A DNA stretch of 7,476 nucleotides from Candidatus Heimdallarchaeota archaeon (GCA_030668875.1 DAOVER010000092.1:1-7476), one strand, 5' to 3'; counted from the stretch's first letter, positions 675-7,379 are shown. Numbers and translations are program-made. The notes: generated from the sequence alone by a model not told the origin.

Positions 675-1058
675 TTATTTTTTATCAATTATTGTAGTTC
701 CAAATGGCGCGAAAGCAATTCCAACCATTTTGAAATGTTGTTTTGCAAAAGGAATACCGATTATGGTTATTGCAAAAACAACACCTACTATTATGTGTGA
801 GATTGCAAGAACCAATCCGAAAATGATAACCCAAAGCAAATTGATAAGGAATCTTCCTGCTCCACCTTTATCACGCTTAACTTCTCTCCCAAAAGGCCAA
901 ACGACAAAACCCGCCATTTTAATACATTGAAGACCAAACGGAATTCCGATAATTGTTATACATAGAACAATCCCCACTGATCCCCAAGCTATTGCTGTTT
1001 CAAGACCTCCGAGAATGACCCAGAGAATGTTTCCCAGTAAATTTAGCGTTTTACCCAT
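675..1058 (-). CDS. yccF: YccF-domain inner membrane protein (two YccF repeats)
   Basis: Two internal repeats: LGNILWVILGG...LCITIIGIPFGLQCIKMAGFVVWPFG and LINLLWVIIFG...FAITIIGIPFAKQHFKMVGIAFAPFG. This is the typical YccF (PF03733) signature. SD-like AGGTG lies 5 nt before the ATG. Confidence 0.9.
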   Translation of the reverse strand: MGKTLNLLGNILWVILGGLETAIAWGSVGIVLCITIIGIPFGLQCIKMAGFVVWPFGREVKRDKGGAGRFLINLLWVIIFGLVLAISHIIVGVVFAITIIGIPFAKQHFKMVGIAFAPFGTTIIDKK

Positions 1059-1151
1059 AATTACACCTTATCCAAATAAGTTTTAGCTATCTTAATAATT
1101 AATCCTAAACGATGATTAGTTTTTCTCTTCTTAAATTTATTCTATAATTCC

Positions 1152-1213
1152 GTCTCGGGACAAAAACATTTTTATATTCCTCTGAACAATGTAATATTGT
1201 CTCGGGACAAAAA
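1152..1213. repeat. Two exact 15-bp direct repeats GTCTCGGGACAAAAA (1152-1166, 1199-1213); candidate operator pair
   Basis: Read directly from the sequence, 47 bp apart. The second copy extends to the near-perfect palindrome TTGTCTCGGGACAA (1197-1210; 6 of 7 pairs match). Confidence 0.85.
1161..1176 (+). promoter_or_regulatory. Candidate BRE/TATA promoter for the 1217-2125 gene (and possibly actin)
   Basis: A-rich CAAAAA followed by TTTTTATA (1169-1176), about 40-50 nt upstream of the start codons. SD-like GAGTGA at 1215-1220 precedes ATG 1226. Confidence 0.55.
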
Positions 1214-1216
1214 TGA

Positions 1217-2125
1217 GTGATGAACATGAAAAATGAAAAAAAGAAAAGCCCAGGAAGACCAAGAAAATATGATACTAACGCGGAACGAAAAAAGGCCTAT
1301 CGTGAGCGTAAGAAAGAAGCTCATAGCAATTTGGAAGAAAGGGCAAAAAGAATCACGGAATTAAAAGGAAGAATTGATAATATGGAAAGAAAATTGGTAA
1401 AATCGACTTACACGGATCAGCATGTACCTGAAGAAATATCAGAAATACATGAACAAATAAAAGATCGGTCTAGGAAATATGCTCCTTCAGAGCTAATGGA
1501 TTTAGAAATTCATGAGCTTAAACGTATACAATCTGGTATTCATTCTAGATATCATGGAAGCTATTACAACCCTCTACGTGCAGCTCTTGAAAGTGCCATA
1601 ATGCCATCTGTTGATAAAGAATTTGATTCTAGAAAACAGAGTTTAGGAGAAAAACCCTTCGAAGTTATAGTTAAAGAAAAATTAGCTAAACCGAGTGATG
1701 AAGTTACTCCAAAAGCAGATATGAAAACAGAAGAATATTTGCAGAAAGCTAAGGAAAAAGGTTTAGAGGTTTCTGCAGAGGATTTGTCTGTTAAACCATC
1801 CACGATGGAGAAGAAAAATATAACGAGTCCCAAACACTGGAAACATCTGAAAGATATATTTAGGACTGATCAATTATTCGAGGTTTTTCAAGAATTGATA
1901 CTTCTCTACACAGTAGAAGCAGAAATATCTAGACGAGAAAGAGAGGTTGTTCAAACAAAGGATATCGAGAGATTAGAAAGACGTCAAGAAGAACTTGAGA
2001 AAATCATGAAGGATGATAAACTTAGACATGTTAAGAAATTTGTTAACAAAGCAGAAAAAAAGAGGAAATTGATAAAAAATGAAAAGAAAGAAAATAATGA
2101 CGAAAACAATAATAAAGAAACCTAA
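1217..2125 (+). CDS. Hypothetical highly charged protein: N-terminal basic region plus zipper (bZIP-like, putative DNA-binding) and a C-terminal coiled coil
   Basis: 302-aa ORF; the real start may be ATG 1220 or 1226. N-terminus PGRPRKYDTNAERKKAYRERKK is followed by a heptad repeat (L39/I46/I53/L60). C-terminal helix EAEISRREREVVQTKDIERLERRQEELEKIMK. No recognisable enzyme motif. Confidence 0.8.
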   Translation: MMNMKNEKKKSPGRPRKYDTNAERKKAYRERKKEAHSNLEERAKRITELKGRIDNMERKLVKSTYTDQHVPEEISEIHEQIKDRSRKYAPSELMDLEIHELKRIQSGIHSRYHGSYYNPLRAALESAIMPSVDKEFDSRKQSLGEKPFEVIVKEKLAKPSDEVTPKADMKTEEYLQKAKEKGLEVSAEDLSVKPSTMEKKNITSPKHWKHLKDIFRTDQLFEVFQELILLYTVEAEISRREREVVQTKDIERLERRQEELEKIMKDDKLRHVKKFVNKAEKKRKLIKNEKKENNDENNNKET

Positions 2126-2144
2126 GAAATGTAAGATAGAGACC

Positions 2145-2152
2145 AAAGGAGG
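2145..2152 (+). promoter_or_regulatory. Shine-Dalgarno site for actin
   Basis: AAAGGAGG lies 8 nt before TTG 2161, which supports the TTG start. Confidence 0.75.
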
Positions 2153-2160
2153 CATCTAGT

Positions 2161-3297
2161 TTGTCGGACGAACTCCATACCAAACCTCTGGTCTTAGATA
2201 ACGGTACAGGATTTACTAAAAATGGTTTCGGTGGTGAAGATCAACCAAGAAGTGTTTTCCCAACAATAATTGGTTATCCTAAGAACCCCGTTGTTATGCC
2301 TGATGTAGAGGCCTATTTTAGAGAATTTTACATAGGTGAAGAAGCCATGAATATGAGAGGCATTCTAAAACTTCAGTATCCACTAGAACACGGACAAGTC
2401 AGAGACTGGGGTGCTATGGAAAACATTTGGCATTATACTTTCTATAATGATCTCAGAGTAAATCCAAATGAACATCCAATCATGCTTACTGAACCTCCCT
2501 TGAATGATAACAAGAATAAGGAGAAAATGGCTGAGATGATGTTTGAGACGTTCAACGTTCCTGCGTTGTATATCTCAATGCAAGCGATACTCTCTCTCTA
2601 TGCCTCCGGTCGAACGACAGGAATTGTAATTGATATAGGTGATGGTGTTACTCATATTGTGCCAATCTATGAAGGTTTTGCCATATCCCATGCTATTTAC
2701 CGAGCTGATATTGGTGGTCGTGATATCACCGATTATCTAAAAAGATTACTCCGTCAACGTGGGCACTCTCTTACAACTAGTGCAGAGCTGGAAATTGTTC
2801 GAGATATTAAAGAGCGTCTCTGTTACGTACCATTAGATCCTGAAAAAGATTTACGACTAGCTGAGAAAGTCTCTGGTATGGAAAAAACCTATACTTTACC
2901 TGATGGAGATAATCTGACTATTAGTTCTGAAAGATTTATGGCTCCTGAATTACTTTTCAGTCCAGGAGTAATTGGTTCTGAAGAAGCTCCTCTTGATGAA
3001 CTAATCTACAGAATGGTGCAGAATTGTGATGTAGATCTAAGAAGAGATCTGTTTTCAAACATAGTTCTTTCAGGTGGAACAACAATGTTTCCAGGACTTA
3101 AAGAAAGGTTGAACAAAGAATTAATTGATCTAGTTCCAGAAACAACAGAAGTGAAAATAATTGCTCCTCCTGAACGAAGATATTCTGTGTGGATAGGTGG
3201 AAGTATACTTAGCTCCTTGAAAACATTCAAGAAACTATGGGTAACAAAGAAGGAATACAAAGAAATTGGCCCTTCAGCTGTCTATCGTTGTATCTAA
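2161..3297 (+). CDS. Actin (Asgard archaeal, Lokiactin-type), 378 aa
   Basis: Colinear with eukaryotic actin throughout: DNGTGFTK (phosphate 1), YPLEHG, EHPIMLTEPPLN, FETFNVPALY, QAILSLYASGRTTG, DIGDGVTHIVPIYEG (phosphate 2), YTLPDG, VLSGGTTMFPG (adenosine), IIAPPERRYSVWIGGSIL, EYKEIGPSAVYRCI. The GYPK..VM.DVE.Y D-loop and ...RCI terminus resemble Asgard actins as I recall them. There are no introns and the gene has a prokaryotic SD. Confidence 0.97.
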   Translation: MSDELHTKPLVLDNGTGFTKNGFGGEDQPRSVFPTIIGYPKNPVVMPDVEAYFREFYIGEEAMNMRGILKLQYPLEHGQVRDWGAMENIWHYTFYNDLRVNPNEHPIMLTEPPLNDNKNKEKMAEMMFETFNVPALYISMQAILSLYASGRTTGIVIDIGDGVTHIVPIYEGFAISHAIYRADIGGRDITDYLKRLLRQRGHSLTTSAELEIVRDIKERLCYVPLDPEKDLRLAEKVSGMEKTYTLPDGDNLTISSERFMAPELLFSPGVIGSEEAPLDELIYRMVQNCDVDLRRDLFSNIVLSGGTTMFPGLKERLNKELIDLVPETTEVKIIAPPERRYSVWIGGSILSSLKTFKKLWVTKKEYKEIGPSAVYRCI

Positions 3298-3304
3298 CTC
3301 CTAA

Positions 3305-3326
3305 TTTTCTATTTTTTTCTTTTTTT
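3305..3326 (+). terminator. Candidate oligo-T terminator of the actin transcript
   Basis: TTTTCTA-T7-C-T7 starts 8 nt after the actin stop codon. Confidence 0.6.
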
Positions 3327-4634
3327 CCAAACATAACTTGTTAGTACAATTATTCCTAATAATACAACTCCAGCTGATGTTGAGCTGATAATAATCGTGA
3401 GACTATTTGATGTTCCATCAAAGATGTTCAAAGCTTTTGTCATACTATCTAGAAAACATTCAAAATCTTCCTCTAGAAAGCTATTAATTGCCTCTCGCTG
3501 GTATTTCTCAGATTTTGCTAGAACTCTTTCTGAATTGCTAGAAGATTGATCTCCAATCATTTCTTTATTATACTCCCAGATATTTTTCGTCAGATTAATT
3601 GCTTGGTCAAAATTGTTTTGCGTAGTCGTAGTCTGATAATAATCTATTGAACACCTATCTCCTACAATCCCCCATAGAACAGCAGGGTTTGTTGTTCCCC
3701 AATAAACAACCCATCCGTTATAGTGGCTCAAACCATTTTGAACACTTTGAGAATTTTCCTCACTTGGATTTATACAATAAGTAATTGTTGTTGAGTGAAA
3801 CGGCCAAGGTGTTTCACCACCTGTTGATTCTGACCTTACCTATCCATAAGGATGAAGGTAGAATTCGATAAGATAATGAATTAATGGTCCTATGAAAATG
3901 GATCGAGCAGGAATCCCAAGCGATCTTAGAAGAGCTACTGCTAGATTTGCTTTACCAACACAAACCCCCGACCCTTCTTGTAGAACTGTAAGAGCATCAT
4001 GGGCACTGCTGTAACCAAATATGACACCATTACCCGTGAAGTTAGATATAGTTTCAACAATAGTAACTGCGTTTGTGTCACTTCCAATAAGTTCTACAGC
4101 TTTTGAAGCTATCTCGGGATTATCGCTTTGGACATATTCTGTACTTTCCAGCCAGCCAATCACCTCTTCAGGCAATAGATACTCGGGAGTTATTGAAGCA
4201 TCGGAAGGTAAATCATCAAATTTATTGTACTCAATAAGAACTGGTACATTCCAGTAGATATAAACAACATCTGTGTTCTCTAGATTATTTATTGAAACTT
4301 CTAATAGCGAATTTCCAGAGGAATAATTGGATGATATTCTATAATCCTCTATAATATCTATTGGATTAGAATAAACTGAAAGAATAATTGGTGCTTGATT
4401 TAGATGAGCTATAGGTATGTGCATATAAATCTTAAAAGGACCAGTATCCGGTGATGCTGCTTGTATAGCAAAACACCCTGAAACGTTATACAAATAGACC
4501 TTTTTATCAACCGAAGTTGTTTGTTTGGTGCTGATTTCAGATGATTCTGGTGATAAATTTTGAGTTACAGTTAGTTGAATTCCTATTATCAAAATCACGA
4601 AAACAAATTTCCAAACATTTCTGGAACTACGCAT
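3309..4634 (-). pseudogene. Membrane-anchored/secreted transglutaminase-like (Cys-His) protein, 441 codons, interrupted by one in-frame TAG at 3840-3842
   Basis: ORFs 3840-4634 and 3309-3731 are in the same frame, and the 36 codons between them are open (VRSESTGGETPWPFHS...VQNG). Features: N-terminal signal peptide (RNVWKFVFVILIIGIQL); YVQSDNPEIASKA..L; TL..GSGVCVGKANLAVALLRSLGIPAR (catalytic Cys); IHYLIEFYLHPYG*VRSEST (His, then the G-W-x-x-x-D/E-x-T position); C-terminal TM helix plus KKRKK. It may be a true nonsense allele, a sequencing error or a readthrough gene. Confidence 0.8.
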
Positions 4635-6702: not shown

Positions 6703-7379
6703 ATGTTAATCAAGAAGAGAAAAAGTGTAGTAATGTTTGGATTTTTGTTATCTTTGTTCATATTTGGAGCAATTTCTGCATCAATAGTTTCAAATGCAGC
6801 CCAAAACGATATAGAAGAAACATATTCTGAACTTAATGAAGATTTGATAGATCATCCCCCAATAATAATAGCAAAAGATGCGGATTTTAGCTTATACAGT
6901 TTTCCTGGTTCTGGAACTCCAGCAGATCCTTATCTTATAGAGAATTATAATATAACTGGTCATCCAATTGGCATATCTATAGAAGGAAATGGATCAGTTC
7001 CTTTAACTATAAATTTCATTATAAGAAATTGCTTCATTCAAGCAGTGATACATGTATCAAAGTAGGTTATATGGGTCCTACTGCAGTAACAATAGATAAT
7101 TGCACTTGCGTAAATACATTTGCTGGCGACGGAACAGGGATTTATGTAATAGGTTGTGATGCACTGACGATAATCAACTGTAACTGCTATAATCATATTC
7201 ATACTGGAATTAGAACAGAATTTTGTGGAGGATTATGGTTAGAAAATAATACTTGCTACAACAATGCTGATGAAGGAATGTTCATAGACAATGCTTCTGA
7301 TAATGGAATGTTTAAGAGAAACTATTGTTATGGCAACGCACGTTATGAAACTTGGTTAAACTTGCCAAAGGCGGTCTAA
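6703..7379 (+). pseudogene. Secreted right-handed parallel beta-helix (NosD/CASH-like) surface protein, frameshifted near 7036-7045 and apparently truncated near 7340
   Basis: Signal peptide KKRKSVVMFGFLLSLFIFGAISASIV, then HPPIII..DADF...FPGSGTPADPYLIENYNI, an N-terminal cap common in archaeal beta-helix surface proteins. The coils (TIDNCTCVN, GIYVIGCDALTIINCNCYNHIHTGIRTE, LENNTCYNNADEGMFID) continue in the -1 frame (ORF 7029-7379). Confidence 0.75.

Follow-up and report, generated by a model that had tools for sequence, protein, structure and literature searches.

The 7,476-nucleotide (nt) stretch analyzed here (the window) is a complete contig (G000:C16, 7.5 kb) from a Heimdallarchaeaceae genome that was built from metagenome data. 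It carries a gene for a regulator-like protein of 299 amino acids (aa) at 1226-2125, named reg here, and behind it an actin gene at 2161-3297, named actin-2; the genus of this genome is called g1 and its sister genus g2. Positions 1151-3326 probably constitute one autoregulated unit, in which a dyad-flanked promoter would drive a DNA-binding reg and a co-transcribed actin-2. The features of this unit and the genes on its two sides are listed below (SD, Shine-Dalgarno).

1151-1162, no strand: predicted distal operator, an imperfect 12-nt dyad CGTCTCGGGACA (consensus TGTCYCGRGACA), conserved in orthologs
1169-1176, plus strand: TATA box TTTTTATA, between the two dyads, a position shared by orthologs and by the paralog operon of g2
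1198-1209, no strand: predicted proximal operator TGTCTCGGGACA, also conserved in orthologs
1215-1221, plus strand: SD-like GAGTGAT, 4 nt ahead of ATG 1226
1226-2125, plus strand: reg gene, 299 aa, regulator-like, without a Pfam family
2126-2160, plus strand: intercistronic gap of 35 nt, with GGAGG at 2148-2152 and with neither a TATA-like word nor a T5 run
2161-3297, plus strand: actin-2 gene, 378 aa, TTG start, an accessory eukaryote-like actin paralog
3312-3318 and 3320-3326, plus strand: two T7 runs, a likely archaeal oligo-T terminator
675-1058, minus strand: YccF gene
3309-3731, minus strand: convergent membrane-protein gene, 140 aa

The motif GTCTCGGGACAAAAA was found in exactly two copies, at 1152-1166 and 1199-1213, against an expectation of 0.02 by shuffling, and none of 200 shuffles reached two copies. 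Each copy contains a 12-nt dyad of the form TGTC-N4-GACA. The A-rich 3′ flank of the distal dyad (to 1166) reaches the predicted position of the transcription factor B recognition element (BRE), while the proximal dyad is centred about 30 nt past the middle of the TATA box and is therefore expected to lie over the transcription start; the start position was derived from the usual archaeal TATA-to-start distance. As read from the sequence alone, the dyads overlap the BRE/TATA region and the start site of reg's own promoter, a geometry of promoter occlusion. For reg itself, the longest open reading frame (ORF) runs from GTG 1217 and gives the 302-aa protein named in a preliminary description of this DNA; that ORF does exist, but the true start is most likely ATG 1226 (299 aa), because it agrees with the start region of the orthologs, with the gene-caller product P0001, and with the preceding GAGTGAT. 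The reg orthologs carry (G)GTGAT followed after 4-6 nt by ATG, and the signal is shared, as AAGTGAT, by the core actin gene described below.

Orthologs of reg were found in 17 of the 24 g1 species genomes, in both g2 genomes, and as one contig-end fragment. Complete upstream sequence was available for 13 g1 loci; at all of them TTTTTA(T/A)A is flanked by the two TTGTCYCGRGAC(A/G)AA dyads, 44-47 nt apart, and this paired layout is kept even at about 50% protein identity, with the symmetry preserved at the variable dyad positions. Since the layout recurs across a genus, it is not a product of chance, and the operator pair around a TATA box that had been proposed at first was recovered in full, with both repeats and TTTTTATA in place and conserved across g1. 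Exact TGTCYCGRGAC sites are present in 17 of the 24 g1 genomes, mostly only at the reg promoter; the stray ones are single, with no second copy, TATA box or reg gene near them. When up to two mismatches were allowed, the dyad matched 100 sites in the genome compared with 136 for the reversed control, that is, no excess indicating a wider regulon was detected, and no site was found at the core actin locus.

That reg would bind its own promoter is best supported by the fact that the operator and the basic region of the protein change together. In the g2 ortholog of reg, the basic region is altered to AEKQKAYR, and the TATA box is flanked by GTAACGTTA(C) sites. A g2 paralog, regB, has a g1-like basic region with AERKRAYRERKK kept, and its promoter has the exact TGTCTCGGGACA / TATA / TGTCCCGAGACG arrangement. 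Further, dyads of TGT-N6-ACA type stand next to the TATA box in every paralog group and are particular to that group. The autoregulatory layout of operator and TATA box suggested in the preliminary description is supported by these observations, being genus-wide, near-unique in each genome, and co-varying with the protein in the paralogs.

Comparison across the genus also argues for a single operon. In all nine genomes that have actin-2, the gene is located directly behind reg, and it never occurs elsewhere. Seven loci keep the SD block GACCAAAGGAGGCATCTAGT and the spacer ahead of TTG, while in genomes G009 and G001 the actin-2 ATG overlaps the reg stop by 11 nt. Neither a TATA-like word nor a T5 run was found in the 140 nt upstream of actin-2 at any of the nine loci; by contrast, the core actin has a conserved BRE/TATA about 90 nt upstream. 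In the window, the 35-nt gap was confirmed to contain no T-tract or TATA box and to carry a strong SD, the GGAGG standing 8 nt ahead of the start TTG 2161, and the T-tract reported behind actin-2 was recovered as the two T7 runs, which would act as the terminator; read on the minus strand, the same runs encode the KKRKK tail of the convergent gene. Co-transcription of reg and actin-2 is thus well supported by gene order and signals, as the single bicistronic unit postulated earlier would require. As to the synteny of reg and actin among relatives, actin-2 stands behind reg in 9/9 genomes that have it, and it is present in only 9 of the 24 species.

Along the reg protein, an AT-hook-like core with the sequence GRP is followed by a basic helix (AYRERKK), a heptad coil that is short but conserved, a conserved middle part, and finally a long C-terminal helix. 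Family-wide, the GRP, an A-Y-x-E-R-K-K basic helix, the short heptad coil and the long C-terminal helix are retained; G10, R11, P12, A24 and K30 are invariant, and Y25 and R28 are almost invariant. Along the coil, which extends over only about three heptads, L46 and M53 never vary and I43, I50 and L57 are conserved at their heptad positions. In the structure model, which is all helices (mean predicted local distance difference test score (pLDDT) 67, predicted template modelling score 0.33), a continuous helix spans residues 18-62 with a pLDDT of about 88, so that the basic region runs into the heptad coil on one helix. An AT-hook-type sequence, (K/R)GGRPRKY, is present, with the GRP core invariant across orthologs and paralogs; the Pfam profile PF02178 (AT_hook) passes its cut-off of 17.4 bits in the distant homologs P0094 (18.5 bits) and P0105 (18.0 bits) and was not listed for reg. 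The N-x7-R signature of basic leucine zipper (bZIP) proteins is not general in the family, as position 18 is Asp in 16 and Asn in 5 of 22 orthologs, with R26 invariant; the reg of the window has N18 and R26 in the 299-aa numbering. In a feature search of the ESM Atlas, reg scored 0.83 at best, which falls short of the useful range. As had been noted earlier, motifs of known actin binders were not seen: RPEL repeats (RPxxxEL) occur in 0/22 orthologs and LKKT/V is also absent. A WH2-like LKRI at residue 98 was considered and rejected, since it is unconserved and unrelated to the presence of actin-2.

By these comparisons, reg is a member of a very small unnamed family with an AT-hook-like core and a basic coiled coil, comprising 48 proteins at E ≤ 1e-10 among 1.84 billion representative proteins. 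Within 399 Asgard genomes, the family was confined to g1, g2 and g15, the last a single genus from a different Heimdall family, and to g14, where N-terminal fragments occur. The majority of the paralogs have a length of about 200 aa and adjoin TPR proteins (TPR, tetratricopeptide repeat) of about 610 aa, and the reg orthologs carry an insert of about 90 aa that is missing from the paralogs unlinked to actin. At loci L045-L054 and L062, nearly every member of about 200 aa has as its partner a protein of about 610 aa with a MalT-like TPR region, and the two together look like a recurrent two-gene module. In addition, the N-terminal module, in which a coiled coil comes after GRPRK(Y/W)-x3-AER-x2-AYRERK, was observed in many proteins of 50-150 aa (P0110, P0118, P0094, P0105), the carriers including two high-GC and possibly bacterial metagenome sequences (P0110, P0118) and one Promethearchaeota genome sequence; the module seems to be a small DNA-binding one without a name.

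The actin-2 protein matched PF00022 in full length (residues 6-376, 436 bits, E 1e-130). Its closest PDB chains are all actins, the closest solved one being 9wc4, 'HC1 actin', to which it aligns full length (E 7e-184), as it does to eukaryotic actins (E about 1e-155). However, every g1 genome also has a core actin, located here at G000:C78:7343-8467 (locus L021, G000:C78:5343-10467, in which the gene occupies 1998-3134 on the minus strand), which has its own promoter without a reg-type operator. The core actins share a mean mutual identity of 98.8%, compared with 88.5% within the actin-2 clade, and actin-2 is 83% identical to the core actin of its own genome. All actin-2 proteins form one clade (support 83/90) and have 23 fixed differences from core actin, concentrated in residues 2-7 and the D-loop (42-51). 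These comparisons indicate that actin-2 is an accessory, faster-evolving paralog and not the main actin of the cell. The suggestion of a dedicated regulator of Asgard actin must therefore be narrowed, as the partner of reg is a dispensable paralog and the core actin is separate, with its own promoter and no operator. Use of the TTG start of actin-2 as a device to tune expression, also suggested, was rejected: TTG starts the core actin of the same genome and of four relatives as well, and two actin-2 genes use ATG. Downstream of the core actin on the same strand are a gene for a prefoldin beta subunit (PF01920, E 2e-19) and a small gene that matches DUF3194 weakly, below the threshold (E 0.0045), and about 90 nt ahead of the core actin start stands a strongly conserved block, ACTATCAAAACATTTAATA.

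The loci without actin-2 were informative about the history of the pair, and their comparison indicates that the reg and actin-2 pair is ancestral and that actin-2 has been lost repeatedly. Behind reg in g2, a relic was found in which 21 N-terminal actin-2 codons are fused out of frame to the C-terminal end. In G021 the actin-2 SD block is retained and is then followed by a TnpB-like gene, and in G017 the first five actin-2 codons remain. In G007, G023, G012 and G008, reg leads straight into a terminator and a Zn-ribbon gene, both of which lie beyond actin-2 in G009. The reg tree, in which regB is sister to the orthologs, requires at least four changes in actin-2 presence, and at least five independent losses of actin-2 were counted, with reg intact in at least seven species in which actin-2 is deleted. 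Synteny between species extends to the flanking genes (YccF, Zn-ribbon, DUF389), in a chromosomal context. The gene at actin-2's place in G021 (G021:C25, L043 3772-5337, minus strand) encodes a 521-aa TnpB/Cas12f-like protein (PF07282, E 6e-16). The actin-2 and reg trees conflict at one point, the G011 actin-2 grouping with that of G009 (100/95) and the G011 reg with the clade of G000; recombination or gene conversion among actin genes may account for this.

A second module was found in g2 (L044 1901-4396, G024:C35). Behind the regB promoter lie orf172 (a 172-aa ORF without a family), the 246-aa regB and a divergent actin, which regB overlaps by 8 nt. This actin is 39% identical to the core actin and has no ortholog elsewhere. 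The module is a second pairing of the reg family with the actin family.

Based on these results, the N-terminus of reg (AT-hook-like GRP, AYRERKK helix and short coil) would most likely bind the TGTCYCGRGACA dyads as a dimer, and occupancy of the distal (BRE) and proximal (start) sites would shut off or tune the transcription of reg and actin-2. Actin-2 would then be translated from its strong internal SD, or via the start/stop overlap in some species, and the conserved helical remainder of reg, about 240 aa, would be a candidate sensor or partner surface. DNA binding by reg, co-transcription, and the sign and signal of the regulation are what we infer here; as to the sign, repression is favoured from the site geometry.

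Several observations weigh against an autoregulated unit of this kind. The distal site occupies a position that archaeal activators use as well, which would allow a sign of regulation other than repression. No Pfam match was obtained for reg (only noise in hmmscan), Foldseek of the reg model against PDB returned nothing at E ≤ 0.001, and a profile search of PDB sequences with reg returned nothing below E 0.07. The PF00170 bZIP_1 profile reached only 8.8 bits (E 7.3; C16:1259-1363) against a cut-off of 27.6, and no bZIP family appeared at E ≤ 0.1 in the hmmscan of reg. The basic zipper of the preliminary description is thus retained as a layout, a basic helix running into a heptad coil, and given up as a family assignment, considering this score and the replacement of the Asn by Asp in 16/22 orthologs. 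The sequencing runs found to contain 1100-3400 or 1226-2400 were DNA metagenomes (marine sediment, cold seeps), with no RNA run among them, and the A-rich 3′ end of reg may hold a weak non-canonical internal promoter. Finally, reg stays intact together with its operators after the loss of actin-2; therefore, reg has a role beyond actin-2.

The missing match to any recognised DNA-binding domain in the Pfam, PDB and Foldseek searches, and the richness of reg in long helices, would also suit an arrangement in which another transcription factor binds the dyads and reg is a coiled-coil structural or scaffolding protein without specific DNA binding. We regard this as unlikely, because operator and basic region change together in the paralogs and the invariant GRP and basic motif are at the extreme N-terminus of the family. 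Moreover, the site is almost confined to reg's own promoter in every genome, and a trans-acting factor would therefore have a one-promoter regulon that always travels with reg. A separation into two transcription units, with an actin-2 promoter inside the 3′ end of reg and a merely positional adjacency, is very improbable. Internal promoters are common in archaea and the 3′ end of reg is A-rich, but the lack of a TATA-like word in the 140 nt upstream of actin-2 (0/9 loci), unlike the core actin, the start/stop overlap in two species, and a strong SD typical of internal cistrons all point to a single unit.

It is also conceivable that reg is mainly a physical partner of actin-2, either as a DNA-filament adaptor (ParR/parC with a ParM-like filament) or as an actin-switched DNA binder (MRTF-like). 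The reg and actin families are paired twice independently with overlapping or tightly coupled genes, actin-2 never occurs without reg, about 240 aa of conserved helix are unexplained, and the insert of about 90 aa is missing from the paralogs not linked to actin; in plasmid R1, too, parC sites flank the operon promoter. However, reg was kept intact after the at least five independent losses of actin-2, most family members pair with TPR proteins rather than actins, RPEL and LKKT/V are absent and the LKRI at residue 98 does not follow the presence of actin-2, and there are only two sites in a chromosomal, syntenic context, so we consider a mainly physical partnership quite unlikely. A complex prediction for actin-2 with reg gave a median of 0.53 vs. 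0.44 with one control, and was not used as evidence for or against. A combination, in which reg binds both the dyads and actin-2 and the state of actin-2 feeds back on the operon, or in which the pair is a chromosomal ParR/ParM-like DNA-positioning module, is likewise quite unlikely; with such a coupling of DNA and actin, regB and the divergent actin of g2 would represent this device in diverged form. The autoregulated operon with reg as its putative DNA-binding protein is the reading we retain.

The layout of the unit resembles that of known archaeal autoregulators that act by promoter occlusion, such as Lrp-type and TrmB-type proteins, MDR1 and Phr, in which the regulator's own operon likewise has dyads over the BRE/TATA and the start site and the regulator gene comes first. 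These proteins, however, use helix-turn-helix or winged-helix domains, while reg has none and instead has the GRP, the basic helix and the coil. Similar to eukaryotic bZIP proteins (Yap/Pap1, PAR; PF00170), reg has a single long helix on which the basic region leads directly to a heptad coil; its AYRERKK core resembles the Yap-type AFRERK, and one paralog group uses GTTACGTAAC sites, which fit the PAR-type bZIP consensus RTTAYGTAAY. In contrast to those proteins, reg is below the Pfam cut-off, its counterpart of the invariant Asn is mostly Asp, and its coil has only about three heptads. Convergence or an older prokaryotic module is likelier than bZIP ancestry, because the N-terminal module is found in small proteins outside the group.

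Among archaeal regulators, GvpE is also zipper-like. For AmzR, another archaeal zipper-like factor, paired basic helices that grip DNA without a helix-turn-helix have been proposed (bioRxiv 10.1101/2025.05.05.652248). Unlike reg, AmzR carries sensor domains (PAS, GAF), and its length is about double that of reg; no sequence relation of reg to AmzR or GvpE was found in Pfam and protein-database searches. In type II partition systems, ParMRC, an actin-fold gene and a gene for a small DNA-binding protein share one operon, with sites flanking the promoter. The present operon is alike in joining an actin-fold gene to a gene for a small putative DNA-binding protein behind a site-flanked promoter, but the gene order is reversed, the actin is a true eukaryote-like one (83% to the housekeeping actin), and the operon is chromosomal. 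Neither a plasmid or mobile context nor an array of many sites was found: the flanks are syntenic and the dyads only two. No paper on an Asgard bZIP protein or on a regulator of an Asgard actin was found in a literature search, in agreement with the preliminary statement that no described dedicated regulator of Asgard actins was known to its author.

Two further observations were made in the window. At 3309-4634 on the minus strand, a transglutaminase-like ORF (3840-4634) and the 140-aa membrane ORF (3309-3731) are in one frame with a single TAG between them (3840-3842), where the motif HPYG*V suggests that Trp (TGG) would be expected; the region may represent a single gene of 441 codons interrupted by this in-frame stop, through pseudogene formation, sequencing error or read-through. 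At 6703-7379 on the plus strand, the overlapping ORFs 6703-7065 and 7029-7379 are repetitive and Cys/Asn-rich with the look of a beta-helix repeat, and may belong to a single gene that a frameshift has divided. A similar large protein is encoded downstream of reg in g2 (L018).

The locus provides a case in which a dedicated control of a eukaryote-like cytoskeleton gene in Asgard archaea could be tested. It offers a clean candidate cis/trans pair, the 12-nt dyad and the 299-aa protein, together with a natural swap of specificity, TGTCYCGRGACA in g1 vs. GTAACGTTAC in g2. With reg, an unnamed zipper-like and putatively DNA-binding family is added to the few archaeal regulators without a helix-turn-helix, although the presence of the N-terminal module outside the group cautions against taking the reg family as the bZIP ancestor. 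For the organisms, these results suggest that some Heimdallarchaeaceae keep, beside a near-frozen core actin, a second and presumably conditionally expressed actin with an altered D-loop.

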